From positions 64,001 to 128,000 of the forward strand of contig CAWBHS010000022.1 in the NCBI GenBank assembly GCA_963788655.1: DNA of 64,000 nucleotides, given 5' to 3'. Source of the DNA: an uncultured Verrucomicrobiae bacterium. GTDB taxonomy: Bacteria > Verrucomicrobiota > Verrucomicrobiia > Limisphaerales > JAFGQR01. The position numbers and the translations under genes were made by a program. Below are positions 3,752 through 51,492 of the stretch, in pieces (positions within the stretch are counted from its first letter, which is position 1; the number at the start of each line of letters is the position of its first letter). Below the pieces are notes generated by a model. That model saw only the letters and a program-made list of their open reading frames with translations, did not search any database and was not told the DNA's origin.

Positions 3752-3764
3752 CGTTCGATTGAGA

Positions 3765-8487: not shown

Positions 8488-8750
8488 TTGCGACGAATGT
8501 ATCGCGAACACGTCCGGCAAATGAAATTAACACGTCGGGTTATCGAATCGCAGGAAACCGAACGCCAGCGGATTGCTCGAGAATTGCACAGACGGCCTGG
8601 AGCAGGATCTAATGCTGATCAAGAACACGGCGAAAGTGACATAGCGACAGGTTGCGGATCAGTCGCCCGCCAAAGAGCGATTAAACGAAATCTCGGACTT
8701 TGCCAGCCGGGCCATCAATGAAGCGCGCGCCATCATGTCGAACCTCCGGA
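8488..8750 (+). pseudogene. Remnant of a HisKA_3 (NarX/UhpB-type) sensor histidine kinase
   Basis: Reads LTRRVIESQETERQRIARELH-(extra A at 8590)-DGLEQDLMLIKNTAKVT-(TAG 8642)-RQVADQSPAKERLNEISDFASRAINEARAIMSNLR. No ATPase domain follows. Confidence 0.75.
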
Positions 8751-8840
8751 ATCGTTACCGCGGAAAGCCAATGGTTATTCATTCATCCTCGGCTTTCCTT
8801 GAACACTTCAGAATTTACAATCGTCCTCAAGAGAAGTCAG

Positions 8841-8863
8841 GGCTCGACGGAGTCTCGCCCTAC
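8841..8863 (-). repeat. Single GTAG-type REP arm
   Basis: Minus strand reads gtagggcgagactccgtcgagcc, a GTAG foot followed by an imperfect hairpin. Confidence 0.5.
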
Positions 8864-9062
8864 CTCATCTATTGCCTATCGCTCCGTGTCCCCACGTAGT
8901 CCCGCTCCCCCATCCCACACACCGCCAAATACATGGCCTCAACCACGCAAACTTGGATGGTCCCCCCGATAGGCAGACTCCGGGTTAACGGCGGCGAGTA
9001 TTGCTGCTTGGCGACATACGAGCTTGACGAGTTGATTCGGCTTCCGCAGACGTGCCAATCCC

Positions 9063-9248
9063 AATCGCTGCGGTCCCCAGGTGGGTGACGGCTGGCTGGA
9101 ACGGTACGGCATTAATGCGGTCATCCACGAGTTCAACTGCCATTGGATTGCCGGCCGGAAGGATTATCCGTCCGCCAAACATTGGCAGGATTACGGCGAG
9201 AAACTCGCGGAAGTATTCTATGAATATTTCGGTTTGGTGAAGCCGTGA
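9063..9248 (+). pseudogene. C-terminal fragment of a truncated gene (possibly an M14-like peptidase tail)
   Basis: Translates to protein-like VGDGWLERYGINAVIHEFNCHWIAGRKDYPSAKHWQDYGEKLAEVFYEYFGLVKP*, with an in-frame stop at 9033 upstream. The family assignment is from recall only. Confidence 0.45.
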
Positions 9249-9291
9249 AGTCGAGTTGAGGCGCTCACGTCGTCACCCACGGTGCAGGATT

Positions 9292-12200
9292 TCAATGCGC
9301 GCACGCCTTGGCTGGGCAGCCTAAACCGCACGTTTTGCAACGGCATGGAAAAGTTCGGTTCCTGAAAACACTCAATGGGTCGCAGTGATCAAGCGTGAAC
9401 CAAGCGCCACAGCCGGGACTGATTACATTACGGGGAGCGATCGCTTCCTGATCCGCCGGCAATAGAGGCAGCCGCCACGGATTGTTTTGCGCGAAGCTAA
9501 AACCGTTGCCCAAGCCATCCAGAGCAGCCCAACTTCCCCGCGGATTGCGATGGATATAGCGTCCGGCCAAAGGATCGAGGAAACGCGACCCGTGCTGAAA
9601 CCAACCAGTCGCCCGGTCGTATCGCTGGCCGGCAAACAAGTAAGGATTACTCACGCCGGAATCGCTTGCGAGCAATTCGAAGGCGGCATCGTCATTGACG
9701 GTGTCCCAGGTTGTGCCACCGTCCTCGCTGCCCGCCATGCTGCCGTTGCCGCGCCGGGCAGTACTGAAACCCCAACTGGCTGCATTGCCGGTGGTATCAT
9801 TCACAATCTCCAGCCAGTACATCGTGCCGGTCTGCACCTCGAACGGCGTGGTCAATAGCGCTTCGTAAACAAATTCAGCGGGGCCCACCATCAAGTTCCG
9901 CCCCGTGGCAGTGCGAGTAACATTGTTGCCGACCGCTTCGGTGAGCAACACCGTTCCCGGCTCGCCCAGGTTGTCGGCGTGAATGCGAATAGTGAAGTCG
10001 TCACTGGGCGGCGGGGAACCAAAGGCGTAGGCGCCCCACCAGCGCATGCCGTAAATTCGTGTCGGCTGGTCAAAAGCAAAGTCGTCGGCAACGAACTGGT
10101 TGGTATCCACGTCGGAAACATAGGCGGAAAGTCCGTCCGGCCATTGCACGTGCGAGGCAATGATGGGCTGGCCAAAGTCTTCGTAAGTGTAGCGCTCGAC
10201 CAAACCGCCTGCCGCATCGCTGAGCGCCACCACGGAGCCCTGATCGTCCAGGTGATAGAAGAAGTCGCTCGCGCCGCGCCGCATGCTGAGGAGGGCGCCG
10301 TCGGAGCTGCGAATGTATGTCGCCAATGTGTTCCGCTGGCCGTCCTGTTCTTCGATGACCCGCTTTCCGTCGTATAAATACCGCGTGGTTTGACCGCCAT
10401 CGTTCTTCTGAATTCGCCGTCCCAGAGCATCATACCCATAGACGACCGGAGAGCCGTTGGCTGGTGTGAGTTGCACCAACCGATTGGCGTAATCGTAATG
10501 GAACGTTCCCTCAGGCGGTCCATTAGTGATGGCGACCAGGTTGCCGTTGGCATCGTACTGACGCCCACCATCGAAAGGAGTGGCCGTGTACTGGTTCAGT
10601 TGCGCGTCCGCCGGCTCCGGCAGCGTCGGATCGAGCGTGTAGTTGCCCGGCGCCGGATCGCTGCTGACGTTCAGCCGGTTGCCCGCGCCGTCCAGCGTGT
10701 AAACCGAATCACGCACCAGCAGGCCGACGCGATTGGTCACCTGCGACTGAACCAAGCGATCCACGGAATCATAGACGAACGTCTCGCTCCGCCGCGAACT
10801 GCCCGGCATGGCGTCCCAGCGGATCACTTTGTTCGCTGCTGCATCCCAGGATAAGTCGCGCTGGTCCAAAATGATGCCCGTGGCGATTTGTTTGTAGGTG
10901 GTATCACTGACGTTGCCCTCGGAGTCGTAACCAATCAGGCTGCGAGTGCCGTTGCTGAAACGACGCGCCTCAATCCGCGCCGGCCCGAGGTAGAACAGTT
11001 CGACCAGCGGTGATCCAGGTCCGCACGAACCGTCGCACGTCTGCTCTACGCGGTTGAGGCCGTCGTAATCGTAATGCGCCGTGCGCTCCTCCCGGATAGG
11101 TCAACGCGACGGCATTGCCAACGCCGTCACGCATCCACGCGGTGAGGTGATCGCTGACCGGCGGAAACGAGGGCGACTCGAAGTTGAGCGTTTCCCGAAT
11201 GCGGTTGCCCAGAGAGTCATACGCGCGCGTCACCAACGAATCATCGTTTTGCGCCTGCACCAGCAGCGAACGGCCATCGTATTGCCGAATTTCGTAACTG
11301 CTGCCCAACACGCCCGGCCCGCGGGCAATCGACCGGCTGATCGGACGATCCAACAAATCGAACATGGTCGCCACTGACGTTCCATCCGCATCGGTGGTCA
11401 GCAGCGCGTTGTCATGCACGTCGTAGCCGTTCACGACAAATTCATTGAGCGGTGGACGATCCTGGTCGGCGGGCCAATCCAGCGTGCCGTAGCCCACCCA
11501 GTTCAACGTGCCGTCCGCCATCCGCGTGAGCATTCGACGGTTCAACGAATCGTAGGCATAACGCGTCACGTTCGTGTTGTCGTCGATCTGCGCGATCAAC
11601 CGGCAGGTGTCATCCCAAATCTGGCGCGTGGTGATTTCGTCGATGACGTTGCCGCTGCCGTCGCCGGTATCGGTCATCTCCCGGCGGATCGCGATCAATC
11701 GGCTCAGCCCGTCATAACTGAAGTGCGTGAGGTTACCACGCGGATCGGACTGCCACGTGCGGTTGTTCCGTGAGTCGTAAGCGTATTGCCGGACTGAATT
11801 CCCGTTGTCGGTCGCGCGCACCAACCGGTCCAGTCCGTCATACTCGTTCGTAACCGCAGTGATCAATGGCGGATTACCCAAGTCAGACAACTCGACCGCC
11901 GTCCGCACGCGAAGGTTTCCATTGGGATCGTAAGCGTAAACTACCTGGTTGCTCCTGACGTCCGTAACGGTGTTGGTGCGATTCGCCGAATCGTACGCAA
12001 TCCACGTGCTGTTGGTCCGGTCGTCGGTCACCTGCAGAAGCTGCGAGTTGTCGTTGTAAACGAACCACGTAGTGGCGGAGCCGTCGTCCAAGGGCTGCTG
12101 GTTCTGCGGATCGAAGAAGACCTGGTCGAGCCGTTCCAGACGGTCCATGGCATCATAGCGCCAGAAGGTCTCGGCCAACCGCCGATTACCGGCGCCGCCC

Positions 12201-15200
12201 AATTGGTCCTGCATTTCCCCGTCGAGCCGTTCGGCCACGCGGTTGCCGTTGGCGTCATAGTGGTCTGTGGTCACGTTGGCCATCGCGTCCGTCACCTGCA
12301 ATTGGCGGTTATAGCCGTCGTAAGCATAGTGGGTCACGCGCGGATTATCCTCCAGTCCCTGACTCCGGCGGATGAGATTCCGATTGCCATCGTAATCGTG
12401 TTGCGTGGTGGACTGGAGCCCGCTGCCGGCGCCACGAGTTTCCAGGAACAACAAGTCACGCTCGTCGTATTCCGAACGCACCAGGTTAAACGGGTCATAG
12501 CCCGCGACCGCTTCGCCATAGCGCACAAGCGTGCGATTTCGATTGGCGTCGTAGGCGTATTCGGTGGCCAGGAATTCCGGGCGCAAGCGGAACGGAATTG
12601 CTTCGGAACTCAAGACCGAGGCCGGCAAGTCAGCACTGCCTTTCTCCTTAGTCGCGCGCACCGGGTAATTCAGAATGTCGTAGTCGAAGATCGTCGAAAA
12701 GTGCGTGTTCGGTTGGAGCTGGCCGGTTTCGTCGCGGTTCTCGACATCGACTCGCACAACGTTGTTATTGGCATCGTAGTAAAAGTCGCGCCGATACCGG
12801 ATGCCGCTGCCGGGCGTCACTTCTCGAGATGTCTCGCGGAGCACTTGGTCCAGCGCGTTCACGTCATAGAGCGTGTCGTGGTTGCGCGGGTCCACGGTTC
12901 GCACCACGTTGCCTACCGCGTCGTATTCGTAAGTGGTCGTGAGGGTCAAGCCTCCGGCATCAACGATCTCCTGCGCCCGGTAACCGCGCTGAGGTCCACT
13001 GTCGTAATACACATACTCGTCCCGCCGCCGATGGCCGCTGCCGTTGTCCGGCAGAACGTGCGCGGTCATTTGGCCGAATTGATTGTATTCAAAGTCCTCG
13101 ATAACTGCTGGCAGACGATGTTGCGTGTGCCGGCGATTGCCGCGGTCGTCGTAGAAGTGCAGCGTGACGTGGTTGCGCGCATCGGTGTGCTTGGTGACGA
13201 AGTCCCGGCCACAGCAACTGCCAAAGCCGTCTTCATATTCGAACGTCTCCACCAACTCCGGTTGATCGCCGCCCAGCGGTCCCGGCAGCTTGCGGCAAAT
13301 CCGCAGGTTCCCCCGGAAACGCGGCGGGGCAGCCGGATTCAAATCCCGCTCGTAAGTCGATTCCGTCGAGTTGCCGTTGGGATAGACCACCCGCGTGACC
13401 AGCGAGTCGATGTTCCATTCTTGCCGCGTGTCGTAGAACGCCGGATCGTCCGGGCGCAAGGGATTCTGGGGACGGTTGGTGGTGTCGGTCGTGGGCTGAT
13501 CCGGCACGGCGCGCCCGGTGAATTCGCGGTGCAACACCGGCCGGTTGCCGGCGTCGAAGTAGCATTCGCTGACGTTCCCGACGCGGTCGTTCACGATGGC
13601 TTTGGTGATCGCAAAGCCGTTGGCCGGACTGGGCGTTTGCGCCACGTAATGGAAGTTCAACACCTCGTTGCTGTAACCCCACACCTGGCGAACCACGCGA
13701 CTGCACGCGCCTTCGATTGGCGGTTCGAAAGTATTCTCCAGCCACGTCTGCCCTTTGCCGTCGGTGATCGTTCGCAGCAGGTGGCTCCCGGGGCAGGCAC
13801 AAGCCGGGGTGGTGTAGGCGTAAATGTTGGTTTTGCCACCGGGAAAGTTGTTGCCATTGACCGCATCAATTACTGCCGGGGAAATCGCCGCTTTCAAATC
13901 GCCGAATGAGCCGTTGGTATCGCCGTCCTGGTAATGCTCGTAACGCACTTGGCGGCCGGTGAAATCCGTCACTGCCTCGATGAAACCATCGTTGTCGTAG
14001 CTGACGGCTATATCGCGATCGAGGGTGTCGGTGATGTTGGTGAGCAAGCCGCGGTCGCTGTAAGTGAACGTCAGTGCGTTGCCATTGCGATCGGCGATGC
14101 GCGCAATGCGGCCTTGGGCGGGACCACCATCCAACGGGAGGAATTCCCAAACGCCTTTGTCGGCGAAGGTCAACACGAACTGGCCGTTGGTGCCAAACTG
14201 GCCTTCGCGGAAGAATTGATTGGCCGCAAACGTCCCATCCGACTGGCGATAATAAGTGTCTTGCCGCGTGTTCCCGTCATACAAGTCGAGGTCCGGTCCG
14301 CGCGGCACAATGCAGATGTTATACGAATAGTCCCAGCCGTAGCCCATCGGCGTGACCAGGCACAAACACGACCGGTATTTGCGGGCCCAAACGAAATCGA
14401 GTCCGCGGCCCTTGATGCACAAGTCCGTCGTGGCGTAATGGAGTTCGCCCGAGAACAGATAAACAAACGGCGGCCCGCACGTATCGCGGCAAACCTCGCC
14501 GGTGCCGGGTTGGGCGGGCGGCGGTTCCGGCGGCTCAAAGACGTTGGTGATGTCGCCGGTGATCGGGAAATCAACCAGCCCCACCCGATAAAAGCGGCTG
14601 GTGGCCGGGCCAACCTCATCCTGCACCGTTATATGTTCGCCCGTCCCCGTCACGGTGGTCAACATCGCCCATTCACCGTCCGCCAGCGCATTCTTGAACT
14701 CCACCGCGTAATCGAGTCCACGTTGGGTGTCAAAGACCAACGTGAAATTGGTTTCCGTTCGTGCGAAGCTTTGAATGCTCGGGGCGATACGTCCCAGCAC
14801 CGTGACGTCAAAACTGCACTGCGCGGAATTGCCACTGGGATCCGTGGCGGTGCAAATCACCGGCACCGTGCCTACGCTGAAAATGGTGCCGGACGGCGGC
14901 ACACATTCGATGAAGGCTTCGCCGGAATTGTCTTCCGCCTTGATTGGGTAAAACGCCGCCACCTGCGGTTTGGTGCAGATCAACACCTGGTTGCTGCAAT
15001 GCAACGTCGGCGGATCGACGTCGGTCACTTCGATCCACCGTTTGGCGCGGCCAATGTTCCCCGCAACGTCCTCGCCCATGAAGAAGACTACTGTGCGTCC
15101 CAGCGGGAAGAACGAACCGGATTCCGGCTTGGCGGTGACCATCGGCGCGGGATCGCAGTCATCAACGAACTCAGGCAGGGGGAAGGTGACGATGGCACCG

Positions 15201-18146
15201 GATTGTCCCGGATCGTTGGGCACCACAATGTCCGGTCCGGCGCTGCACGTCTTGTAGCTCAGCCCGAGGTAATCCACCGCCGTGTTGTTGCTGATGAGAA
15301 CGTCGAGGAGAAGATTCCGCGCCAATGCCGGCTGCAAATCCAGAGTGGTGCCATCTGCCAGCGGCAATTGCCCGAGGTCCAGTGTCAGTTCCACATCCGA
15401 ACCCGTCGTCCAAGGCTGCTCCAAAAGACCCGGTCCCAACGCTCCCGAACCAATTGGCCGGCGCCAGGTCGTTAGCGGATTAAACCCGGTGGCGTCCGTG
15501 AAACCGACCGTGATGAGATCGTCTTCAGGTTGGCCTTCATCCGCGCGGAGATGGATGGTCAACGTGGCTTCAGCTACGCATTCCGGCAACTCGATGAACG
15601 AATGCGCAAAGGGCCGGTCCGGGGTGAATTCATCAAACATGCGGCTGCCTTCCAGCACCAATGCCGCCAGCGTCGAACGCGGCTGCGTTGGGGTTGGCGT
15701 CTGAAAATCGTCGTAGCCGCCGGCCTCCGTCAGCACCGGCGGACCGGCACAGGATGGCAGGTGCGGCCGCGAGGTGTCGGTCACGATGATGGTTGTGTGG
15801 CCGGTGCTGGTATTGCCCGCGCCGTCGGTCACGAGAAACGTCAGCTCCGTCGCGCCCGTATTGATGATCGTTCCCGTTGGAGGATTCTGTTGCACGTTCA
15901 CAGTGCCACATACGTCCTCCGCAATCACACTACCAGTCAGATCAGGAACCGCAGCCTGGCAGTTTTCATTTGCCGGCAGCACTTGCGTGGGCGGGACTTC
16001 GATAATGACTGGCGGAGTTGTATCGGCAACGGTTATCGGGATTGTGACGGTATTGGTGTTATTCGCACCGTCGTGCGCGATGATGGTTACCAAAGTATCG
16101 CCAAGAGGCAGCAGCGTTCCGGCGACAGGATCTTGAGCCAGACTCACCGTGCCGCACGCGTCACCGACCTCCACATCCGCCAACAAATTGGGAGCTGCGG
16201 CCGTACAATCCGCATTTGCAGGAATGGTCATCGGCGGTGGCACACTGGTGAAAGTCGGCGGGGAGACATCTTCCACTGTCAAAGATACGGTAGCGGTGTT
16301 GGTGTTGCTGGCGCCATCGGAAGCGGAGATACTCACCACAGTCAGGCCCAAGCCCACGCGCGTTCCGGCTGCGGGAACTTGCCGCAAGGTCACCGTGCCG
16401 CACGCGTCGGTGGCCACGACATCGGCGAGCAAATTCGGCACTGCGGCGCCGCAGGCTTCGTCGGCTTCCAACGTTTGGTCGGACGGCACGCTCAGCAACA
16501 CCGGCGGGACCGAGTCAACCACCGACAGCACGACCGTCTCCGTGTTAGTGTTGCCAGCACCGTCATCAGCCGCGATAGATACGAGCGTGTCGCCTATGCT
16601 TAGGACTGTCCCGGCTTCCGGTGTTTGTCGCAGGGTAGCGGGGCCGCACGCATCCGTGGCCACGACGTCGGACAACAGGTTCGGCACCGTGGTACCGCAC
16701 GCTTCATCGGCTTCGAGAGTCTGATCTGCAGGCACGTTCGTCAGCGTCGGTGGGGTTACGTCATTCACCGTCACCACGACCGTTACTGTGTTAGTATTGC
16801 CCGCACCATCGTCCGCGGCAATGGACACCAGAATGTCGCCCAAGCCTACCGCCGTTCCCGGCCCAGGATTTTGCGTCAACGACACCGGAGCACACGCATC
16901 GTTCGCTCCTACTTCGGCCAGCAAATTCGGCACGCTGGCGGCACAAGTGTCGTCCGCGACTAGCACACGATCCGGAGGCACCACGGTAAAAGTCGGCGCT
17001 TCCTGGTCTTCCACGGTCACGACTTGCGTGCAGGCAGCGGTTTCGCCACTCTGATCCATTGCCTGCCAAGTCACCAACGTGTCGCCCAGCGGAAACACTG
17101 GCGGCGCATCGTTGGCCACCTCCACCGGACCGCACTCGTCGGTGGCCGTCGGCAGCCCCAGGTCCACCTCCACGGCCGCGCAGCCGCCCGGGTCCGCTGC
17201 CACCGTGAAACTGGCCGGACAGGTGATAACCGGGGGAACATTTTCCACGAAGAGCTGTGCTTCCTCACTCATCATGACCCCAACGGCGTTGGTTACCAAC
17301 ACAGAATACCCGCCGCTTTGAGTGAATTGGACGTCGGTGAGGGTCAACACGGCGTTCGTGGCATCGGGTAGTTCGAAGCCATTAAATAACCACTGGTAAC
17401 TCAACGGCTCACTGCCGGTGGCTTCAACCTGAAAGCTGGTATCGGTGCAGTTAACCGCCGTGTGCGTCGCCGGCGGCGTCACAATGAAGGGTGGTTCGCC
17501 GCCAGGTGAAGAAAACATCAGCGGCTCGCCCACTTGCGCCATGGGCGGTTCGGGCAACCACAATCCATCACTGAAGGTATAAGTTCGCCACCCACTGAAA
17601 TCGCCCGGATCCGGTTGCGCATCCGTGTCGTATTGGTACACCGTGACGCCTTCCACCGGCGGCGTGCCGACGATGGTTTCGTAAGTGCCGACATCGTTGG
17701 TTTGGCGGCTGAGAAATGCAAATTGTCCGGTCGGCAGCTCCACTGGCAACGCTGGCTGGTGGGGTTGGCCCGACAGAACCAGCGTGAACGGAAAGTCACT
17801 GTGGAAGAAAGCGCCTTCACCTGGATTCAACGTGAGGTTGGGCGACCAACCGGTGAACTCGTAAAACGCCTGCACGTATTCCTGGGTGGCCGGGTTCCAT
17901 TTCAAGAGAGATGATCCGGGCGGCACCTCGATCATGATTTCGTTCAGCGTATTCCCGCCATTGTCCAATTGATTGGCAATGGGGGTGAATCCGGGAAGGA
18001 TTTGCACCGGGTATTCCTGGAAACCAATGTCAGACGCGCGGACGGTGGTGGAGAATAGTAAGGCGCAAAACAATCCGATCGCCAGATGATGTAGCGCAGA
18101 GTTCCACTCTGCTGTTTCGCAGATTTTTCAAAAGCTCAATGCGCAT
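9292..18146 (-). CDS. Secreted Ig/HYR-repeat RHS (YD-repeat) protein, ~2950 aa after frame repair
   Basis: Order: signal peptide (...LAIGLFCALLFSTTVRA/SD), Ig domain (GSEPLSYQW), 8 HYR-like repeats, FYRV domain, DUF6531-like segment (VYLFSGEL...MGYGW), many YD repeats, RHS-associated core (FYHLDDQGSV, NPYLFAGQRYD). One extra base at ~11087 joins ORFs 10970-18073 and 9292-10869 (YPGG-RTAHYDYDGLNR). A second +1 shift is needed to use ATG 18146; otherwise the start is TTG 18073. Confidence 0.9.
18091..18135 (+). repeat. GTAG-type REP (gtagcgcaga family) overlapping the RHS gene 5' end
   Basis: gtagcgcagagttccactctgctgtttcgcagatttttcaaaagc aligns without gaps to the inverted copy at 19364-19408. 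Confidence 0.65.
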
Positions 18147-18951
18147 TGGCCCCTCCCGTTTGCTTGGTGGCTCGCACACGATAGAAACGTTGCGAGAGGC
18201 TGCCAGTAATCGAAATGCTCCCCGAATTGTGCGGCCCGCCGGGCAAGGCCTGCCACGTCGAGCCCGGACTCAAGTCATCGCGATACTCGACCGTATGATC
18301 GTAACCCGGACAGGGCGTAAAGCTCAGGATCAATTGCGGCAGCGGCCCGTTGCTGCCCGGATCTGGCATGATGGATAATTCGAGTTCGCACGGGACCGCG
18401 ATCACTTCCAGGTCAATGTCCGCCAAATTGTAATCGCCACCGACGAATTCCTCACCGCCACCGGTCGGCGCCACCAGGAAATCCGTCAACTCCGGCCCGC
18501 CGCTGCCTTCGCGGACGCTGAACCGCGTTTGGCCCTCGGCTAAACCCGTCACCGGAATCCGTAGCAACTCGACTGGTGCATCGCGCCCGGCAGCCGGCAG
18601 GTCCATGAAGGTGTCGTAAATACCGCGCCGGTTTGCGCCGTCGTTGAAACCGGTGGATGACACGGGTGGATCATCGTTGTCGGAAGCCGGCTTCAGCAAG
18701 GATGCATAGTCTGCCTGGGCCACCGCGCCGTTCGTGTTCAACACATCGACATACCAGGAAAAGATCCGGTCCGTCTCCGGGCGCAGGCTCGGCACGATTT
18801 GCGCATAAACGCGCAGCATCGTGTTCTCGCCAACAGCAATGGAGTTCGTGTCCAACCGCATGGTAACCGCAACCGCTTGCCCCAGGCTGCTCGCCACCAC
18901 GCCCAGCAGCGAAGCCAAAACCAGGGCGGGAATGACCAGGTGCTTCTTCAT
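18136..18951 (-). CDS. Secreted cohesin-like protein with C-terminal FYRV domain
   Basis: Clear Sec signal peptide, then a ~150 aa beta-rich domain with cohesin-like pattern (SIAVGENTMLRVYAQ...IFSWYVDV...LLRIPVTGLAEGQTRFSV), then a terminal domain HTVEYRDDL...W...QRFYRVR. Its ATG overlaps the upstream TGA. The cohesin call is pattern-based. Confidence 0.7.
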   Translation of the reverse strand: MKKHLVIPALVLASLLGVVASSLGQAVAVTMRLDTNSIAVGENTMLRVYAQIVPSLRPETDRIFSWYVDVLNTNGAVAQADYASLLKPASDNDDPPVSSTGFNDGANRRGIYDTFMDLPAAGRDAPVELLRIPVTGLAEGQTRFSVREGSGGPELTDFLVAPTGGGEEFVGGDYNLADIDLEVIAVPCELELSIMPDPGSNGPLPQLILSFTPCPGYDHTVEYRDDLSPGSTWQALPGGPHNSGSISITGSLSQRFYRVRATKQTGGANAH

Positions 18952-39900: not shown

Positions 39901-42900
39901 AATTGGGTTTGCGCGGAAGCAGTCCGTTGTCCGGTCAACGCGGCGTCGGTCAATTCGCTTTGGCCATCACCGTTCGCGTCCGCGTTCTGCGAATTGCCAC
40001 TGGTGGACGGCGGTGCTTTGACTTCGCCCAAGGCGCTCAGACTGTGTTGTGCGCCGGTGGCCACCGAAGCGTCCAGATCGATGATCGGCGTCCCGGCGAG
40101 CGCGTCGGTTTTGGTAGCGGCCAGTTGGATCGTGTTTGCATCAAGCACGATGACGAAATACTCATCTTCGTTCGTCAACCCGCCGATGTCCGCGCCGCCG
40201 CCGTTCCGGTAAATCACGGCGTCACCGGTGGTGAAATTGTGCCCGGCACTGAACGTGATGGTGTCGTTGCCGCTGTGGACGTCGTTGGCCGGATTGATGA
40301 AGTCCGGCACGAACGAAACGGTGAATTGGCCGGTGTCGGCATTCAATCCCGGCGTCTGACCCAACGCGGTAATGACGGTATCGTCGCCAACGAAAGCTTC
40401 GATAGTCTTGTTGATGAGGTTGACCGCGGCGGCCGCGCCGGCGGTCACCCCGGCGGAACCACCGATGTTGCCGGCGATCTGGTCCAATTCGGTGTCGTCC
40501 GTGGCGCTAATCAGAATGTTGCCGTTCGCCTGAACAGTCGTGGTGCCCGCGGGCGTTACCGCATCATCCGGATCGTCGCCGATGAAGGCGCGCGTGGTGA
40601 TCGTCATCACATAAACACTGGCCGATCCCATAATGGCTGCGCTGCCACCAATGGCCGCGCCGGGCGCAATGGAAGCAAGGTCTTCCCTGGAATCCGCCAA
40701 CACTTGCACGTCGCCATCCGCCGTCACGGTCACGTCGTGCGCAATGAAAGCCTGCGTACCCTTGTTGATGACTGCCACGTCGGCACCGGCCGCCACCCCA
40801 ACGGTGCCGCCGATGCCCAGTCCACCGGCGGCGCTGATCAGCTTGGTGTCATCTTCGGCGCGTACCATTACGCTCGGATCACTGGCTGCACTGATGGCGT
40901 CCACCTGTGTTCCCGCACCAATGGAGGCGTGAGTGGTGTCGGTCAGCGTATTGACGGTCGCCGAGCCCGCGATTCCGGCCGTGGCCGAACCGCCGCCCGT
41001 TATCGCCAGGGTGAAGATGTCTTCGGACGAAATGGAGGTGACCGCCAATCCCGCATTACCGCCGGTGGCCAAATGGGCATTGCCGCCAATCGAAGCTTGA
41101 ACGGTGTCGTCGCGAACCAACGTAGTGTTGGACGCGCCCACGCCCGCATCGCCGCCAATGCCCAAGCCGCCGGCAATCAAGTCGATCTCGGCTTCATTGC
41201 TCGCAGACACGGTGAGGTTACCACCTGCATCCAGCGTGGCATTGCCGGCTACTTGAGCGTCCGTCTCGGCATCGATGACATACACGGAAGCCGCGCCACT
41301 GACGCCAACACTCTGCCCGCCGCTGACATTCGCGGCCAGCGAAGTGATGCTGTTTTCGGATTGTGCTTGAACGGAAATATCATCCCGCGCGTGAACGGCG
41401 GCGCCATTGCCAATCGTTGCCTGGGTGTCCTGATTGAGCACCCCGATCTCCACGCTCGCACCCACGCCGACCGACGATCCAATGGCGACCACGCCGGCGG
41501 CGTTCACCAAGCGAGTGTAAGCGACGGCGGATAGGATTACGGTTTGAGTCGGCAACGGGGCGCCAAGAATTGTAGCAGCGGACGTGAGTCCGCTCTGCCT
41601 TTCTTCGGCGGAGAAGTGAGCGGACTCACGTCCGCTGCTACCAGTTTCTTGGGCGGGCGCCACGGGCACATTGATTTGCGCGTCGTCGCCGATGGTGGCT
41701 TCGGTGGTTTCGCTCAGAATGGTTACCACCACGGAACCAGCCACCGAGGTTTCGTCGGAGAGCGAGCCGCTGACGGCAATGGCCAGGGGGAACAGGTCGA
41801 AGTCCAGGTTGATGCCAATATCAATATCCACGGGCGCCAACGAATAATTCGCGGTGACGGACAGCGAGTCATTCGCATCGGCCCGAACGCGCGCGCCCAG
41901 CGAAGCGCGCGTGGTGTTGTCGATGTAATTGACCGCCACCGATGCGCCCACGCCCACGTTGCCTTTGCTGAAGACTCCCGCGCCGGCGATGTTCTGCAAT
42001 TCCATTTCGTTCTCCGCTTGAACGGTGATGCCAGCGGCAGAATTCAACGACGCATCATCGCTCACGAGGGCCTGGCTGCTGGTCGTGAGCACCAGGATGG
42101 AAATGGAACCCGCCACGCCAGTTTCTTCGGCGCCACTGCCGGCCAAGGCACGCTCGGTGTAGGCGTTCGGATCCGTGGCGCCCATTAAACCTTGCACCGT
42201 TATCGAAGCAGCCGACACACTGACGCCAGTGCCGATGGATGCCTCGGCAGTCAAGTTGGGAATATTCAACGCCACCGCGGCACCGACGCTGGTGTCGGAA
42301 TCTGTCGCTATGGCATCGGCGGTTGCAGTTGCGGGAACATCAGCGGAAGCGATGAGGCTGAAGTGGCCGTTGGCCTCGATGGTCTGGTTCGCCGCTACTG
42401 AGGCAGTGCTCTCGACAATCACCACATTCACGCTCAGCGCCGCGGCCACTCCAACGTCCGCGGAATCGCTCTTGGTCTTGTCGGAGGATTGGTTGTTGGC
42501 GTTCCCCAGCAGTCCCTTGACCGCGGGTATGACCGCGTCGGAGCCCGCGAAGCTTGCCTGATCACTGGTTTGCTGGTCGGCATCCTTGTCGTCGGGTTTG
42601 CTGCCTTTGGCACTGGCTTTCGCGGTGGCGTTGCTCGTTGTGATGGCGCGGGATGCAATCGATACCGCACCGCCGGCGTTGACGCTCCGGGCTACATTTG
42701 CGACCGCGGCTTCTTCGACCACCGCCAGAACCAACGAAGCCCCGACCGCCACGTCCGTCGCGGCGGTCGTTCCGTCAGCCGAGGTTTCCACTTCGGCGGT
42801 GTGCTTCGCTTCAACCGTTAAATCACCTGTCGCGTTCAACGTGTTGCCGCTGCCCAGATGAGCGGTCGTGTCCGAAGCCTCAATTGAAATGGCCACCGCG

Positions 42901-45900
42901 GCGGCCACCGCCGTGCCGCCGGAACTGCCGGTTTGCGCCGTCGTAGTCACGGTGGTGGTAAAGGTCGCGGACACGGTGACGTCGCGGGCGGTTCCGTTCA
43001 CCTGCGCCGTGTCGGCAATCTCCGCACGAGTCGCATTGGCATCATTGGTGGCAAAGGCAAAATTGAGCGCCGCCGAGGCGCCCACGCCCACATCTTCACC
43101 CGAAGCCCCGCCCTCGGCCGGTTTGGCGGTAGCGACGCTGCTTGAGGTCTTCACCGCGCGCACGATGAGGTCACCACCATTCAACGCGATGGCTGCGCCG
43201 GGAAGAATGCGCGCTTCGGTGCGATTGTTCACCAGGTTCAGTGCCAGCGAACCGGCCACGCCAACGTCCTTGGCGCCGGCGCCAGAAGTGGCTTCGGCCG
43301 TGATCGTGTGCGTGGTGTCGCCAGAAACGTCGGTCATCACTGACTCAACCGTGACTCCCTGCGCGTTGACGCTGGCGTTGTTTCCAATGCTGGCCGCGTT
43401 GACGGCTTCCACGTAATTGATCGCCACGGCGGCGCCAACGCCGGTCGAACTCTTGACGGTGGTGGCGTTGGAGTTGGCGGAAGCGTCCACGTTGTTGGAG
43501 GTGCTTACAGTGAATTGACCGGCGGCAATCACCGAGGTGTTGTCCGCCAACGCTGCTTCGGCTTGAGCGATGACAATGTTCAAAGCCAGCGTCGCGGCCA
43601 CCCCGACTGGTCCGTCGCTGGTTTCGGCGGAAGGCGTATCGTCCGAGGAAGTGCCGCCGGTGTTTTCCGCGTGGTCCTTTTGCGCTTTAACCTGCTGGTC
43701 GGAATTGTCCTGCGACCCGGTCTTGCTGGAATCGGTGCCTTTGGCGCTGGCTTTACCGTCGCTCATGGCGGAGGACGAGGCGTGACTGCTGATCATGGCC
43801 GCTCCACCCGCGTCCAGATCACGCGCAACAGTGGCGAAGGTCGTATCATTGATAATGTTCAGAGCCAGCGAAGCGCCAACCGCAACATCGGCCCCGGCGG
43901 CTTCGCCATCGGCAGTGGTGGTGACATTGCCGGTGTGGGTAGCAGCGGCGCCGAAATCGCGGGTCAGGGTGGTCGGGTTGCCGGTACCAAACCGGGCCGT
44001 GGTTTCGTTGATGGAAATGGAAATCGCGACGCTCGCGCTCACCGCGGCGCCACCATCGGACGTGGCTCCGGTCTTGGCCATGGTGGTCATGGTTTGACTC
44101 GAAGTGGCATTGAGCTTCATGTCGCGGAGTGTTCCGGTCAGTTGAGCAGCGTCTTCAATCTCGGCGCGAGTCATGGTGTCGGCGGCGATGTTCAGAGCCA
44201 GGGAGGCGCCTACGCCCACGTCGGAACCCGAGGCGCCACCGGTGGTCGTCGGCTGCGCGGAGGCGGTGTAAGTGGCAGTATTGGTCGCGGTCAACTCAAC
44301 GTCGCCACCCGCAATGATCACGGCAGCACCCGACTTGACCAAGGCTTCGGTGCGGTTCTTGACGATGTTGATGGCTAACGCGCCGGCGACCCCAACGTCC
44401 GAGGCGCCGGCACCGGACATGGCCGTAGCACTGAACGTGTGGGTGGCGTCGCCGGAACTCGTCATCACGGCTTCCAGTGCGAGGCTGCCGGCGTTGACAT
44501 TGGCGTTGCCAGCAATCGACGCTTCGTTCACCACTTCGGCATAGTTGATTGCCACGGCGGCACCGACACCCACGCCTGATCCGCCTTGGGCGGGACTGGC
44601 AAAGTTCGAGCCGCCGCCGGTGCTGCCCTGCACGGTGCTGGCGTTGGCTTGAGCCGAAGAGTCGGTATCGTTGCTGGCGCCGATCGCCAACGCGTTGCTG
44701 ACTTGGACCGTAATGCTTCCGGTTGTCGAAGCGTGGGAGGTTGAATTGGCCAGGTTCACCGCAATGGCCGCCGCCACACTGACGGTGCCATCGGAGGTTT
44801 CAGCGGAAGGCGTGTCGGTGGTGCCGGAATCCGCCACGCCGTTGTCCATCGCCTGTTGATCACCGTAATCGCGTTGGTTGCCGGTCTCCTGGTTGACGCC
44901 GTCAGCCGGGGCTTGCGAATTTTCTTTGGTGCCTTTGGCGCTGGCGGTTGCTTCGGCCTTGCTGGTGGCCGCGGAATGGGCGTTGACCGTAGCGCTGTCT
45001 CCGGCCGTTAGGGAACGAGCGAGAGTGGCCGTGACAGTGTCGTTGGCAATGTTCAACGCGAGGGACGCACCAACTGCCACGTCAGAGCCGGCCGCGGTGC
45101 TGTCAGCAGTCGAGGTGGTCGAAGCAGTGTGCGTTGCCGACAGGGTCAAGTCGCCGGACAAGCTCACGGCATTGCCAGTGCCCAGGCGGGCGGTCGTGGT
45201 ATTATTGGCGATAGTGATCGCGGCGGCGGCACTGACGCCGGTTCCGCCCTGCGATTCGGCGCCGGTACTGGCGGCCGTGGCCAAGGTATGATTGGCGGTG
45301 GCGGTGAGCGACAAATTGTCCGGAGTGCCATGAAGTTGAACCGTATCTTCGATCTCCGCCCGCGTGGTGTTCTCGGTAATGCTGAGCGCCACCGACGCGC
45401 CTACACCAACGTCTGAACCGGTGGCGCCACCTGCAGTTGTTGGCTTGGCGTTCACGGTGTGTTCTGATTGATTGACTGCCGTCAACTGGATATCGCCGCC
45501 GTTGACGGTCACCGATGTGCCCGATTCGATGATGGCTTCACTGGTATTGTTGACGATGTTGATCGCCAACGATCCCGCCACGCCGGTGTCGGTCGCGCCG
45601 GCACCGCTGGTGGCTTCGGCTTTGAACGTTTGCGTCGTGTCCCCGGAAACGTCCGTCATGACTGCTTCTTGGGAGAGACCACCCGCGCTGATAGTGCTAT
45701 TGGCACCGATGCTCGCTTCGTTGGTGGTTTCGACCCAGTTCAGCGCTACGGCCACGCCGACACCGGTCGTCGTGGCTTTGCCCGTAGCTTGGCCATCAGC
45801 CGTGGCGCTGGCGTCGGTCTGATTGGAAACGCTCAAGGTCAGCAGGCCACCCGCGATCACGTTGCCGTTGGCAGGAATCATGGCTTTCGCATTATTAAAT

Positions 45901-48900
45901 GCGAGATTCAAGGCGAGAGCGGCGCCAACGCTGACGGCCCCGTCGCTGGTTTCGGCGCTGGGGGCATCGGTGGTGCTGGTGCCGGCTTTGCCTTCGCCAA
46001 AACTCTTTTGGTCGGCGACCTGATCGTTGGCGGTGCTGTTGCCGGATTGGTTTTGTTCCTTGTCTTTTTCGGTGCCCTTGGCGCTGGCAGTGGCGCTGGC
46101 GCTGGTGGCCGCGCTCGCGTGGGCGGAGAACGTCACATCGCCGGCGGCGCTCAAGGCGCGATCCGTGGTGGCGGTGGTGGTGTCGGTCACCAGGTTCAGG
46201 GCCAGCACGGCGCCCACGGCTACGTCGGCACCCGCGGCTTCGCCAGTGGCAGTCGTCGTGGCACCGGCCGTGTGGGTCGCAGTCGCATTGAGTGAACCGC
46301 TCAAGGTCAAGCTTGCGCCCGTGCCCAAACGTGCCGTGGTGGTGTTCTGGGCCAAGGTAATGGCGACGGCGGCACTGACCGCCGTCCCGTCGCTCGATTC
46401 GGCGCCTGCTTGGGCGGTGGTGGTGAACGTGTGTTGACTCGTGGCGGTCAAGCTGAAGTCGTGCGCGCCGCTGACTGTCGCACCGTCGGCCAGTTCGGCA
46501 ATGGCGTCGTTGGCTGGCGCCAGATTCAACGCCACCGATGCGCCTACGCCTACGTCCGATCCGCTGGCGCCTCCGTCGCTTGTCGGCTGAGCGGTGGCGA
46601 TGTGCTCGGATTGGTTGACCGCGCTAAGGCTCACGTCGCTGCTGGTCAGTGTAATGGTAGAGCCACTCCCGATCAGCGCCCGGCTCCGATTGACCGGCAC
46701 CAGGTTCAACGCCAGTGAACCCGCCACTCCGGTGTCGGTCGCCGCGGCGCCACTGGTGGCTTCGGCTCGGAAGGTTTGGGTCGTGTCCCCGGAAACATCT
46801 GTCATCAACGCCTCCACCGTCATGTCGCCGGCGCTGATCGTGCTGTTGGCGCCGATGCTGGCTTCGTTGACTGTCTCCACCCAGTTCAACGCCACCGCCA
46901 CGCCCACACCGGTCGTTGTGGCCTTGCCCGCGGCCCGGCCATCGGCCACCGCTTGCGCATCGGTCTGGTTGCTGGCGCTCAAGCTCAACACTCCGGCGGC
47001 GGTCACGTTACCAGCGGCAGGAATCAACGCCTGGGAAGTGCTTTGCACCAGGTTCAAGGCCAATGCTGCCGCCACGGTTGTTGCTCCGTCGCTGGTCTCG
47101 GCGCTGGGGGCATTGGTGGTGCTGGTGCCGGCTTTGCCTTCGCCAAAACTCTTTTGATCAGCGACCTGATCGTCCGCGGTACTGTTGCCGGATTGGTTTT
47201 GTTCCTTGTCTTTCTCGGTGCCCTTGGCGCTGGCAGTGGCGGTGGCGCTGCTGATTGCGCTGGCGTGGCTGGCAAATGTCACATCACCGGCGGCGCTCAA
47301 TGCACGATCCGTGGTGGCGGTGGTGGTGGCGGTCACCAGGTTCAAGGCCAGCACGGCGCCCACTGCAACGTCCGTGCCGGCGGCTTCGCCACTGGCGGTG
47401 GTGGTCGCGCTGGCAGAATGGATGGCAGCAACTTCAGAATTGCCAGTGAGTGACAGCGCCGATCCGGTTCCCAATCGCGCCGTGGTTGAATTCTTTGTGA
47501 GCGTCGTGGCCACCGCCGCACTGACCGCCACGCCATCGCTGGCTTCGGCGCCGGTTTCAGTGGTCGTGGTGAAGGTGGATTGACTGGTGGCATTCAGCGT
47601 AAGATCGTTCGCTCCGGTTAAAGTGGCCCCGTCCGCCAATTCCGCCAGGGTTTCGTTGATGGGCACCAGATTGAGCGCGACAGAGGCCCCGACGCCCACG
47701 GTCGGATCTTCGCCCTGGGGAGGTTTCACGACGGGCTTGGCTTCGACGGTGCCGGCGGTCGTGTTGCTCGATATCAGACTGACATTGCCGCCATTGGCGT
47801 TGACGAAACTGCCGCTCTTGATCATTGCGTCATTACGATTGCTGAGGAAGTTGATCGCCAGAGCGCCGGCCACGCCCACGTCGGTCGCACCAGTGCCGGA
47901 GGTGGCTACGGCACTGAATGAATGTCCGGCGGAGGCGAGCGCCTCGATGGAAACGGTGTTGGCCGTAAGATCCAAGTTGCCGCTGAGATAAGCTTCATTG
48001 GTGGTGTCCGCGACGTTGATGGCCACGGCGACGCCGACGCCGGTGGTTGAATCTGCGGCAGTGCTGTCGGCGGTTGCGGACGAAGTAGTGGTGGAACGGG
48101 CCCGGACGCGGAGGTCATTGGTGGCCACGACGGGATTGGTGGTGGCGAGGAAGGCTTCGGTATGCCGGGTCAGGTCCGTAATGGCCAGGGCCCCCACGAC
48201 ATTGACCTGGCCGTCACTGGTTTCGGCGTTGTAATCGTTGAGCTTGGTTTGCGTGTCGGAATTATTGTCGGTCGCGCCGCCAATCGTGGATTTGGCAGTG
48301 GTTGAGATATCCTCCGTCGAACTCGCGTCAATCTGCACGTTGGCTGCGGAGATGGACGCGTTATTCTCGGCGAATGCCCGGGTTGTCGAGTTGACCAACG
48401 CAAACGCTAATGTTCCGCCGACGGTAGTATCGCCTCCAGCAGTGCCATCCGCCATGGTGGTGGCGATAATGTCGTTGTCAGCGGAGAGTGCCAAAGTGCC
48501 CCCCGCGAGGATTGTGGTGGTGTCGGAAAGGCGCGCCGTTGCGGCACTGTCAATCAAGGAGGTAGCCAAGGCAGCATCCACGTCTGAATCGCCTCCACTG
48601 GAAGCGGCCAGGGCATTCGCGGTAGTTTCAACCGTTGATTGCGCGGTAATCGTGACATTCCCCGCGGCGGTAATCTGCGAATTGCCGGTAACCGCCACCG
48701 AAGCAGTGGAATCAACGTCAATGACCGCCAACTCGGCCCCTTGCATATTGAGAAGGCCTTGGGCGGTTGCGTTGATCGTGCTGCTGGCCGTGAGGTTCAC
48801 ATTGCCAGCTTGAATCGTGGCACCGTCGAGCGTGATGGTGGCGCTCGCGCTGGCATCGGTGTCGGTTTTGGTTACGGACGCGTTCAGGCTCACATCGCCG

Positions 48901-49904
48901 GGGGTGAAACCGGAATCCGCTTGTGCCAGAAGACGTGCGCCAACGGCCAGGGAAATATCCCGGGCAGAAAGTGTGATATCGCCGGAGTCACCGGCCGACG
49001 CATCGGATAATGGATCCGAGCCCGCACCTAGATTGCGGCTGGATAATGTTGCCCCGCTAGCAACGGAAATAGTGGTGCCAGCTTCGATCGTCAGATTGTG
49101 CAGGTCTTTGCCTCCAATCGAACCACCTAGGGAAACTGAGCTTCCCGCGACCAAGGTCAAGTTGTCGGCGGTGCCATCGTCGTTGCCCGCGATGGTCGCC
49201 ACCGAGGTGATGGTGATGCTTCCCGTGGCTTCAATGCGGCGAGTGCCCACGATAATGACGGGTCCATCGTAGGTCAGATTACCCGTTACTTGAACATCCG
49301 AAGAAATCACCAGGGGTGAAGCCGCCAATGGCAAACCATTGTCGGTTGCAGCAAGCGCTGCTTCCAAGATTCCGCCGACACGTGAGTTTGCCGCAGCGCA
49401 GGCCGCTAGCTCAGACAACGCCGCTGGCGGAGCGTTGGCGACACGGAGTGAATCCGTGAGTTCCTGAACCATGACGTTCGAGGTTTCCGGGACCGAACTG
49501 CCGACGGACTGAGTGTTGGTTGGCTCGACGGAGCCAAGCGTCGGAGCAATTGGTTCGTTGACGGAAGACGTAGCTTGGACTTCGGCGGAGTCGGCTGGCA
49601 GAGCCTTCTCAGACTTATCGGAGGCTGCCGATGTTGCGGATTGTTCGCTTGGTGTGGCAGCTTCCCCGACCAAGCCATCAAAAACATCGCCCGCTTGCGT
49701 GCTGGGATCGTAAGTCAATTCCGAGGTTTCACTGTCAATGGTCTGAGCCTCGGCTGGGATAACCAGCATGGCGGCGGAAGGATCATCAGTGGTCAGGCTG
49801 GGAGCGGGGTGGGCAATCCCGTCGGCAGAAAGCAATACGCGAGGCTCCAGCGCTTCCAACAGGAACTGGCTGTTTCTGCTTCCAGTCTGAAATCCTCTAC
49901 CCAT
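18948..49904 (-). CDS. Giant LEPR-XLL surface/adhesin-like protein with C-terminal dockerin (~10,300 aa after removing six extra bases)
   Basis: Order: N-terminal LEALEPRVLLSADG, Ala/Gly/Thr-rich filamentous beta repeats, nine HGxxTGxxVxYxNGGG domains, RTX GGxGxD repeats (~31730-32130), beta-propeller-like repeats (~30380-31560), five parallel beta-helix modules, Ig-like domains, dockerin (GDTNGDRVVNDRD...EDLTGDGQVTSAD). ORFs 31581-49919, 31270-31524, 28818-31511, 22442-28849 and 18948-22691 join through +1 insertions at ~31614, 31524, 31280, 28904, 22665 and 22602. Confidence 0.85.
19123..19192. repeat. GTAG-type REP doublet inside the giant CDS
   Basis: Perfect 24-bp inverted arms gtagcagcggacgtgagtccgctc / gagcggactcacgtccgctgctac. 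Confidence 0.9.
19364..19408 (-). repeat. GTAG-type REP (gtagcgcaga family) inside the giant CDS
   Basis: Minus strand gtagcgcagatttccaatctgccgtaacgcagatttctaatctgc forms two tandem hairpins and is translated as SADFQSAVTQISNL. Confidence 0.75.
32745..34920 (-). repeat. Array of eight HG-x-TG...YxNGGG...GLxxGxxYYV domains, nested within one another
   Basis: Eight N-halves and eight C-halves (IDLD...ATGxxH) are visible in translation. A ninth, intact copy lies at ~40040-40300. Confidence 0.85.
41572..41641. repeat. GTAG-type REP doublet inside the giant CDS
   Basis: Same perfect 24-bp arms as 19123-19192 with a different 22-nt spacer. Confidence 0.9.
42100..47900 (-). repeat. Tandem ~1.14-kb (~380 aa) intragenic repeats
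   Basis: Motif SG(A/T/S)xAxxxGVAG(A/S) recurs at ~47880, 46740, 45590, 44400, 43270 and 42130. The KGTEKDKEQNQSGNSTA segment is near-identical in DNA at ~46050 and ~47190. Confidence 0.85.
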
Positions 49905-49997
49905 GAACCGCTTCGGCAAGAACTCCGCCGCCCGCCCAGGTCAGAAATCAATTGGGCAACGTAGTGGTCGTTGAGCTAACCTGAAATTATCAGCGAT

Positions 49998-50026: not shown

Positions 50027-50239
50027 TGTTTCTTTTGGATCTCATTAGGAACGCTCGACATTCCAGCTACCTCGAAGGGAGCACCTTCGATAGAATCGAC
50101 AGGAGTGGCGGTGCCGGGCGCATCGGAATTCCTTGTTAAGTTGCGGGCGACCCGGCAGCATAGCCGGCAAAACCAATGCAGTTACGAGCCAGCCGCAGAT
50201 TACGGCATTATTTGACAGGCACCTCGATGAATCCGGCGA

Positions 50240-51343: not shown

Positions 51344-51492
51344 CGCATAGTATGCAACAACAAACAATTTTACTGTCCATGAAGCAGGTAAGGCGACGTT
51401 ACTGCGCCGCCGTGACATCAGGGCTGAGCGGCAGATCAGTTCTACCAAGATCGTGGTCCCAAGGTGGGCGTAAGCGCGGGCGCGGACTGTTC

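Follow-up and report, generated by a model that had tools for sequence, protein, structure and literature searches.

Non-cellulosomal cohesin-dockerin pairs are known from NagJ, NagH, and NanJ of Clostridium perfringens (2ozn, 2vo8, and 2w1n); there, large secreted proteins other than cellulases are joined through one cohesin and one dockerin. In the type II system of C. thermocellum, the X-dockerin (X-Doc) of CipA pairs with SdbA, OlpB, and Orf2p (2b59), and an immunoglobulin (Ig)-like X module stands directly before the C-terminal dockerin. All characterized cohesin-dockerin pairs bind in a calcium-dependent manner. Giant RTX adhesins of type I secretion systems (T1SS), of the LapA, SiiE, and MpIBP type, are megadalton repetitive fibres with an RTX block and no N-terminal Sec signal, and one of their termini is retained by the cell. 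In this study, we analyzed a 64,000-nucleotide stretch of DNA from an uncultured Verrucomicrobiae bacterium (hereafter the window; positions 64,001 to 128,000 of contig CAWBHS010000022.1), which contains a gene for a giant surface protein ending in a dockerin (gene 1), a gene for a small secreted protein (gene 2), and an RHS gene (gene 3). An earlier note had proposed that the three genes form a new surface machine. This was overstated, and what remains is that genes 1 and 2 probably form a two-gene, translationally coupled, non-cellulosomal cohesin-dockerin cassette.

Dockerins have been noted on huge proteins of bacteria of the Planctomycetes-Verrucomicrobia-Chlamydiae (PVC) superphylum (PMC11573180; bioRxiv 10.1101/2023.11.21.568195). 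According to one report, they are over-represented in such proteins, and their partners are poorly characterized (PMC11573180). Similarly, another report proposes a "planctosome" for freshwater Planctomycetes from Pfam-detectable modules (Andrei et al. 2019, PMC6461901). The present locus belongs to the same superphylum and likewise combines Pfam-type dockerins with giant extracellular proteins that show no connection to cellulose. In contrast, these reports give Pfam-detectable cohesins or no partner, whereas here an adjoining, Pfam-invisible family of predicted cohesins co-occurs exactly with one dockerin subtype. Moreover, unlike in the planctosome, no peptidases or other enzymes are attached. 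Full-text literature searches, with most subscription journals outside their coverage, turned up neither this pair nor this cohesin family.

Dockerin and predicted cohesin of the gene pair

The window is part of a 202-kb contig in an 8.96-Mb, 115-contig genome (86% complete, 5.6% contaminated, 59.5% GC). By its relatives, the genome falls within the Verrucomicrobiota, with MAGs of the Pedosphaera/Limisphaerales type. Genes 1, 2, and 3 and all their features lie on the minus strand. The features of the pair are as follows.

18948-49919, minus strand: gene 1, LEPR-XLL giant surface protein of about 10,300 codons (open reading frame (ORF) maps, junction reading, and intact giants of relatives)
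19701-19976, minus strand: Ig-like X module just before the dockerin (VNDGSPQRSRV...TFPGL...LPDGNYQLTV; alignment A3; model with a predicted local distance difference test (pLDDT) above 90)
19506-19700, minus strand: dockerin of a distinct subtype (Pfam PF00404, alignment A2, structural matches)
18951-19505, minus strand: tail of about 185 aa after the dockerin (pLDDT below 50; not alignable among 15 homologues)
18136-18951, minus strand: gene 2, 271-aa secreted protein (AlphaFold2 model, Foldseek and VIA matches, family alignment A1)
About aa 1-24 of gene 2, minus strand: Sec-type signal peptide (sequence)
18394-18882, minus strand: predicted cohesin-fold domain of gene 2, aa 24-186 (model, structural matches)
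18163-18384, minus strand: FN3-like module of gene 2 ending in RFYRV, about aa 190-263 (model, family alignment)

The stop codon of gene 1 and the start codon of gene 2 share the sequence ATGA at 18948-18951, exactly where the earlier note had placed a stop/start overlap, and a Shine-Dalgarno sequence (GGGAGG) lies 9 nt upstream. The two genes are translationally coupled.

Gene 1 ends in a two-loop dockerin, as had been read from the sequence at about 19525-19690. Pfam Dockerin_1 matches 19539-19685 with 30.6 bits, above the gathering score of 22.9 (35.9 bits in the whole-genome scan), and the two canonical calcium loops of the form D/N-x-D/N-G-D...D are DTNGDRVVNDRD and DLTGDGQVTSAD. Across alignment A2 (15 sequences), the subtype shows 62% mean column identity with the consensus GDxNGDRVxNDxDLYxVWQxLLKPAAxRNLNxDLNGDGQVTxAD, and the calcium-loop positions D14, D18, N22, D25, D45, D49, and D56 show no or almost no variation. 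In the predicted structure, helices 116-126 and 147-159 give the F-hand arrangement of loop plus helix. Model residues 102-161 match eight solved dockerins at Z 5.0-7.2, the best being 2ozn_B (Z 7.2, root-mean-square deviation (rmsd) 2.1 over 55 aa; VIA). A Foldseek search with the X-dockerin model returned nothing at E ≤ 0.001; CopC-like and Ig folds dominated, with X-Doc 4wi0_B at rank 25.

The same X module precedes the dockerin in most of the loci (A3), and its best structural match is the Ig domain of the S-layer protein SbsC (Z 10.4, rmsd 2.3 over 89 aa). The order of X module and dockerin is likewise that of the C. thermocellum type II X-Doc. In contrast to the latter, an apparently disordered tail of 30-200 aa follows the dockerin here, and 4wi0_B itself matches weakly (E 7.5e-3). 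The tail of gene 1 is poorly conserved and, given its low pLDDT, probably disordered. The position of the dockerin is not fixed, because in genome G457 (C61:38040-38798) a 4,993-aa LEPR-XLL protein carries an A2-type dockerin only about 170 residues past its N-terminal motif.

In agreement with the architecture given in the earlier note, the signal peptide of gene 2 is followed by a beta-sandwich and then by a C-terminal module that ends in RFYRV. Its family numbers 323 proteins (E ≤ 1e-3), most of them 250-345 aa long. In gene 2, a strongly conserved domain of about 160 aa precedes the RFYRV module of about 70 aa, and the longer forms among the 32 aligned family members have a second FYR module. 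The AlphaFold2 model, built with these 32 members, has a pLDDT of 86.5 and a predicted template modelling score (pTM) of 0.75; within aa 24-186, the block pLDDT is mostly 81-97, with two blocks at 70-73. Among 48,161 chains, the top VIA match is the cohesin 2vo8 (Z 14.1, rmsd 2.4, 134 of 135 aa), and ranks 1-14 are all cohesins or cohesin complexes (Z 11.1-14.1). The modelled domain thus fits the nine-stranded, flattened beta-sandwich (jelly-roll) of about 140 aa that characterizes cohesins. Similarly, Foldseek ranks 2w1n first, a cohesin+FN3 double module from a GH84 enzyme of C. perfringens with the same two-domain layout. The top 25 Foldseek rows are mostly cohesins (24 at probability 1.00), and type II cohesins are among the top fold matches. 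The neighbour clusters of gene 2 in the ESM Atlas carry PF00963 on 64-70% of their members, which is a lead at most. Collectively, the predicted fold, which has no sequence link to known cohesins, supports the view that the N-terminal domain of gene 2 is a divergent cohesin. The earlier identification of gene 2 as a cohesin therefore stands for the fold but not for the sequence, in which a PF00963 match is absent.

The FYR module is also present in other large ORFs or proteins of the order. In a longer homologue of gene 2, the family F5_F8_type_C_2 matched this module over the last 43 of 91 profile positions only, with 31.6 bits on an excised 151-aa stretch and 24.4 bits on the whole protein, below the cut-off of 27.8. 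This assignment was rejected, and the module remains unclassified in Pfam and NCBIfam.

Based on these comparisons, the C. perfringens pairs are the best structural matches for both partners, and, as in C. perfringens, a single cohesin and a single dockerin would link large secreted proteins. However, their cohesins show no sequence-level similarity to gene 2. Furthermore, the C. perfringens modules lie inside Gram-positive enzymes, whereas here the predicted cohesin is a free-standing 271-aa protein of a diderm Verrucomicrobium and the dockerin is at the end of a giant (about 10,300 aa) in which no catalytic domain was detected. In gene 1, Pfam matched neither glycoside hydrolases nor any other catalytic families. 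With this, one cohesin in gene 2, and four Pfam dockerins genome-wide, the system is not a cellulosome. Unlike in the cellulosome, the cargo is not a multi-cohesin scaffoldin and there are no carbohydrate-active enzymes; cellulosomal anchors bear S-layer homology (SLH) or sortase anchors, and gene 2 has neither.

Conservation of the pair

The locus scan, with one genome per species, gave 29 loci. The cohesin-like part was present in 17, the flanks of which were readable in 15, the remaining two being at contig ends. In all 15 examinable Verrucomicrobiota loci, the adjacent giant ORF has the same dockerin subtype. Pfam finds 14 of these dockerins; the one it misses, in locus L016, is evident in alignment A3, and tblastn aligns the C-terminal region there at 51% identity. 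Twelve giants lie upstream and co-directional and two are convergent, L016 being the fifteenth. Because the two convergent loci are still adjacent, the adjacency survives inversion.

The co-occurrence sample consisted of 200 other genomes of the same order. A full-length gene 2 homologue was found in 11 of them, and the same 11 genomes (8 families) contain an A2-type dockerin at 66 bits or more; the other 189 have neither part, with no such dockerin above 40 bits. In 10 of the 11 genomes, no more than about 1.2 kb separates the dockerin from the gene 2 homologue. In a phylum-wide sample, the gene 2 family occurred in 1 of 400 genomes, and the pair was not found in the one same-genus genome searched, so the pair is an accessory, patchily distributed cassette. 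Collectively, these results show that the giant-dockerin gene and the gene 2 family are a conserved, co-occurring pair. The conserved adjacency of three genes that the earlier note set as a check holds for genes 1 and 2 (15/15) but not for the RHS gene, which follows in 0 of 17 loci among the neighbouring ORFs scanned.

Some additional giants have an A2 dockerin without an adjoining cohesin gene (for example, G548:C36 and G457:C11), and there are giants with two to four dockerins in tandem. A single cohesin protein may thus act for more than one giant and at more than one site.

Pfam detects no more than four dockerins in the genome under study, the best two being those of the window pair (C22) and of a second complete pair on contig C23. 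In this second pair (C23:9358-35680), the giant gene is present as ORFs of 3634 and 4123 aa and further fragments, and it encodes PA14 and Laminin_G_3 domains. The same X-dockerin closes this giant, and next come a gene 2 paralogue with 61% identity and a gene for a Phenol_MetA_deg-like outer-membrane channel. Elsewhere in the genome (C38:219261-220883), a 784-aa frame contains Dockerin_1 and Cohesin, with a second Cohesin adjoining; these Pfam-detectable cohesins have no sequence relation to gene 2. In one of the 17 loci (L014:11426-13951, labelled Candidatus Moanabacter), an 842-aa frame with OEP (TolC-like) and HlyD-type domains comes after the cohesin gene; this frame is either a fused gene or two adjacent genes. 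This neighbour is a possible hint at an export link.

Domain order and integrity of gene 1

Further features of gene 1 are as follows.

49812-49865, minus strand: N-terminal LEPR-XLL motif FLLEALEPRVLLSADGIA (NCBIfam NF012209, 28.2 bits against a cut-off of 17)
31690-32070, minus strand: RTX calcium-binding nonapeptide block (Pfam HemolysinCabind, 91.1 bits, 5 stretches)
20400-30400, minus strand: about five right-handed beta-helix modules (Beta_helix/NosD) of roughly 600-700 aa each (Pfam; period in tblastn high-scoring segment pairs)

The LEPR-XLL motif, at aa 26-43 from the frame start, places gene 1 among the LEPR-XLL giants, and it is followed by an acidic, Ser/Thr-rich linker. About 5,900 residues of the protein have no Pfam match and show short beta-rich repeats. 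A short stretch of propeller-like repeats follows the RTX block, and the beta-helix region additionally contains Kre9_KNH and Big_5 Ig-like domains (Pfam). Tandem Repeats Finder found no array at a score of 100 or more in 18900-50000; the beta-helix modules are too diverged in DNA for its detection.

Gene 1 resembles the T1SS RTX adhesins as a repetitive giant with an RTX calcium-binding block and without an N-terminal Sec signal. In contrast, RTX repeats in those adhesins lie next to the C-terminal secretion signal, whereas here the block is about 4,200 codons from the C-terminus and the N-terminus is LEPR-XLL. Moreover, no ABC exporter, membrane fusion protein (HlyD), or TolC gene was found among the 26 window ORFs and pieces scanned, and gene 1 was not classed with these adhesins. 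The earlier statement that the locus lacks a gene of the T1SS, type VI secretion system (T6SS), or TpsB type likewise agrees with the window ORFs scanned. Retention of the giant, if any, would occur here through cohesin-dockerin binding, unlike in T1SS adhesins.

As assembled, gene 1 comprises four large stop-to-stop frames (31584-49940, 6119 aa; 28821-31565, 915 aa; 22445-28912, 2156 aa; and 18951-22757, 1269 aa), with at least six frame changes near 31600, 31525, 31290, 28890, 22680, and 22610. Every break lies inside a recognizable repeat motif, and good coding sequence resumes directly in another frame. For example, the break at 28890 falls within the motif SPTIDAGD, which is intact at other places in the protein. 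In tblastn searches, the intact giants of relatives are collinear with gene 1 across the 22.7-kb junction (residues 31-568 then 597-1304 of L020, and 467-833 then 853-968 of L006, with one sum E-value per pair). Intact orthologous frames of 8,516, 8,681, 10,288, 10,867, and 11,302 aa were found in four of the five relatives searched, and these five frames have an N-terminal LEPR-XLL motif and an A2-type dockerin near the C-terminus.

In the same genome, rpoB is split into three frame pieces and rpoC into six on one contig (C45:51013-58956), and one dnaE copy into more than a dozen (C94:1104-4314). Because these essential genes are broken, indel errors pervade the assembly. On contig C23, both the second giant gene and the gene 2 paralogue are likewise frame-broken. 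The breaks in gene 1 are probably assembly indels. Since rpoB, rpoC, and dnaE are broken alike and relatives hold intact orthologues, the best reading of gene 1 is a single gene encoding about 10,300 aa. The length in the earlier note equals the span 49919-18951 read through the breaks, but this span is not one ORF as assembled. In this genome, "pseudogene" or "split gene" calls need caution.

The RHS gene

9292-18073, minus strand: gene 3, RHS/YD-repeat protein, about 2,900 aa when a frame change is read through (Pfam, NCBIfam)

The frame change of gene 3 is near 11090, inside a YD repeat, and coding continues to 9292. As claimed earlier, gene 3 encodes an HYR/RHS protein. Its domains are Ig, HYR, a FYRV-type module, DUF6531 (31.4 bits), RHS repeats (RHS_repeat, 80.1 bits; both Pfam), a DUF7901 insert, Rhs_assc_core (34.9 bits against a cut-off of 32.5, NCBIfam), and a short Cys-rich tip. 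Together with a YD_repeat_2x match (NCBIfam), these features place it among the RHS/YD-repeat polymorphic toxins. The Cys-rich tip of about 60 aa after the Rhs core has no family match in Pfam or NCBIfam, and no obvious immunity gene was identified downstream (8400-9290). The DUF7901 domain, which is choice-of-anchor-R-like, is inserted in the RHS shell at 9292-10869 (minus strand).

The C-terminal module of gene 2 (18163-18384) shows 30% identity over 57 aa (E 0.012) to residues 1109-1164 of the RHS protein (14582-14752). A weak "W...RFYRV" beta-sandwich signature is common to both modules. The stop codon of gene 2 lies at 18136-18138, and the frame of gene 3 opens at 18127, with its first canonical start (TTG) at 18073. 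The proposed overlap of genes 2 and 3 at 18136-18146 was therefore not found; instead, a 62-nt spacer with a small hairpin separates them.

At the 17 homologous loci, a non-exhaustive scan of 23 neighbouring ORFs of at least 200 aa found no RHS family. The neighbours include GH2, PNPase, DUF1428, an OEP/HlyD fusion, an oxidoreductase, an M42 peptidase, GatB, a POT transporter, and others. No RHS gene lies beside the second pair on C23 either, where the Phenol_MetA_deg-like gene is found instead. On these grounds, the RHS gene was treated as a local neighbour and not as part of the conserved pair, and the claim that its product is a co-exported partner is not supported at these loci.

Proposed mechanism and alternative explanations

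In the mechanism that we propose, gene 1 would encode one giant fibre, extracellular and about 10,300 aa long, and gene 2 would encode a Sec-exported protein, the N-terminal divergent cohesin of which may bind the X-dockerin of the giant, presumably with calcium in the dockerin loops. We consider this binding likely. The adjacency in 15 of 15 loci and the exact co-occurrence in 200 genomes support it indirectly, and calcium dependence is expected because all characterized pairs bind in that way. Binding would couple the C-terminal end of the giant to whatever the FYRV-type module or modules of gene 2 contact. This contact might be the cell envelope, with gene 2 as an anchor; type II cellulosome anchoring is the source of the idea that such a pair holds a huge protein at the cell. 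Alternatively, gene 2 might act at the distal end as a soluble cap or cross-linker.

The anchor role is one that we hold tentatively, as possible but short of probable; its main alternatives are periplasmic retention or a chaperone function, and a distal cap or cross-linker. The cohesin-like domain recurs, at 43-45% identity, in three longer homologues (1,135-1,499 aa). In two of them, as read from the sequence, a signal peptide is followed by the cohesin, 10-13 cadherin/He_PIG Ig domains, and one or more C-terminal FYR modules. These proteins hint at a polarity in which the cohesin faces outward and the FYR module is cell-proximal. They lend some support to an anchor because they resemble a displayed receptor with a cell-proximal C-terminal module. 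A more specific proposal, which we regard as rather unlikely, is that cohesins with FYRV modules are dedicated envelope receptors of a subclass of LEPR-XLL giants. The FYR module would then sit in or on the outer envelope, and the Sec-exported cohesin would capture the C-terminal X-dockerin.

Several observations weigh against the proposed cassette and its anchoring role. At E ≤ 1, Pfam Cohesin PF00963 matches none of 32 family members (gene 2 and 31 relatives). A sequence-profile search of the PDB with gene 2 gave no match at E ≤ 10, hhalign against the two Pfam-type cohesins of the same genome gave a probability of 0.1, and gene 2 has no match in NCBIfam or in Pfam at E ≤ 0.01. Pilin, carbohydrate-binding module (CBM)-like, and GH2-type sandwiches partly share its fold (Z 9-10). 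Gene 2 has no lipobox, transmembrane segment, PEP-CTERM, or other recognized anchor by sequence, Pfam, and NCBIfam, and no hydrophobic Sec signal was read before the LEPR-XLL motif of gene 1, which bears on the location of the protein. The loci and the genomes were drawn from one species collection, so the synteny and co-occurrence counts are not independent, and related genomes are not independent samples. Finally, adjacency and co-occurrence would also be expected if gene 2 aided the giant in another way, such as in folding or export.

The latter possibility, in which gene 2 is a dedicated export or folding helper (a periplasmic chaperone or retention plug) and the X-dockerin is held inside the envelope, would account for the missing Sec signal of gene 1, for a gene 2 that has a Sec signal only and no outer-membrane targeting feature, and for the tight translational coupling, which is typical of chaperone-client pairs. 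However, genome G457 has 11 LEPR-XLL matches at E ≤ 1, nine of them over the cut-off (frames of 4,993-17,972 aa), yet one gene 2 homologue and only three dockerin-bearing giants; the partner thus tracks the dockerin and not the export class. The longer homologues also carry the cohesin on a stalk of 10-13 Ig/cadherin domains, like displayed surface proteins. We consider a helper unlikely, and it would still involve cohesin-dockerin binding, differing in location and purpose only. Less probable still is a carbohydrate-binding or pilin-like beta-sandwich accessory that does not bind the dockerin and owes its adjacency to shared regulation. The lack of a sequence-level link to cohesins and the matches of Gram-positive pilin domains and GH2-type sandwiches would fit it, but cohesins exceed all other folds by 1-4 Z units and match along the whole domain, and the architecture is that of a solved cohesin+FN3 pair. 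Presence and absence exactly track one dockerin subtype in 200 genomes, and adjacency is kept despite inverted gene orientation.

The remaining alternatives concern the locus as a whole. Gene 1 and the RHS gene could be true pseudogenes in a decaying locus, given at least six frame changes in the former and one in the latter, with those of gene 1 clustered in the 22-32 kb repeat region while the upstream 18.4 kb is clean. We regard this as very unlikely, since rpoB and rpoC are broken at similar or higher density, the C23 giant gene and gene 2 paralogue are broken too, and every break lies within an otherwise well-conserved motif with good coding sequence directly after it. A three-part machine, in which the giant adhesin, the cohesin anchor, and a co-exported RHS protein form one contact apparatus, would fit three close genes on a shared strand, a 62-nt spacer without a terminator-like site on that strand, and the weak similarity of a gene 3 module to the FYRV module of gene 2 (E 0.012). 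The absence of the RHS family from the neighbouring ORFs scanned, the channel gene that follows the C23 pair instead, and the lack of a stop/start overlap between genes 2 and 3 make it the least plausible of these explanations. The two-gene cassette is the reading that we retain.

Other features of the window

A scan of 9000-19200 for promoters and terminators gave counts no higher than those in shuffled sequences. Upstream of gene 1, a minus-strand ORF (50048-51490) was rejected as a gene, being Arg-rich antisense junk. At 56057-58454 (minus strand), two ORFs with a 278-nt overlap carry DUF6851 and a VCPO-like helical domain and are probably a single haloperoxidase/PAP2-like gene split by another assembly frameshift. 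A GspD/PilQ-type secretin gene lies at 2-1450, and BamA and Skp/OmpH genes lie at 3140-6326. The Omp85 gene at 3765-6326, with five POTRA stretches and an adjoining OmpH/Skp gene, reads as BamA. The secretin and BamA/Skp genes are 12-17 kb downstream of 9292, at the low-coordinate end, with no link to the giant gene established.

Significance

The principle of cohesin-dockerin pairing is already known, we infer the binding described here, and the three-gene machine does not hold. Nevertheless, the locus offers a testable partner for the dockerin, namely, a cohesin-fold family invisible to Pfam and NCBIfam that is encoded adjacent to it and occurs in exactly the genomes with that dockerin subtype. 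If the binding is true, it would account for the extracellular attachment or cross-linking of some of the largest bacterial proteins, bring diderm Verrucomicrobiota of soil and freshwater into cohesin-dockerin biology, and provide an orthogonal cohesin-dockerin pair for protein engineering. If, furthermore, the FYRV-module cohesins are envelope receptors, they would be the first identified partner for the long-puzzling dockerins of PVC giants. They would constitute a previously undescribed tether of giant proteins to the diderm surface in PVC bacteria, similar in purpose to LapA retention or sortase anchoring and built from cellulosome parts.

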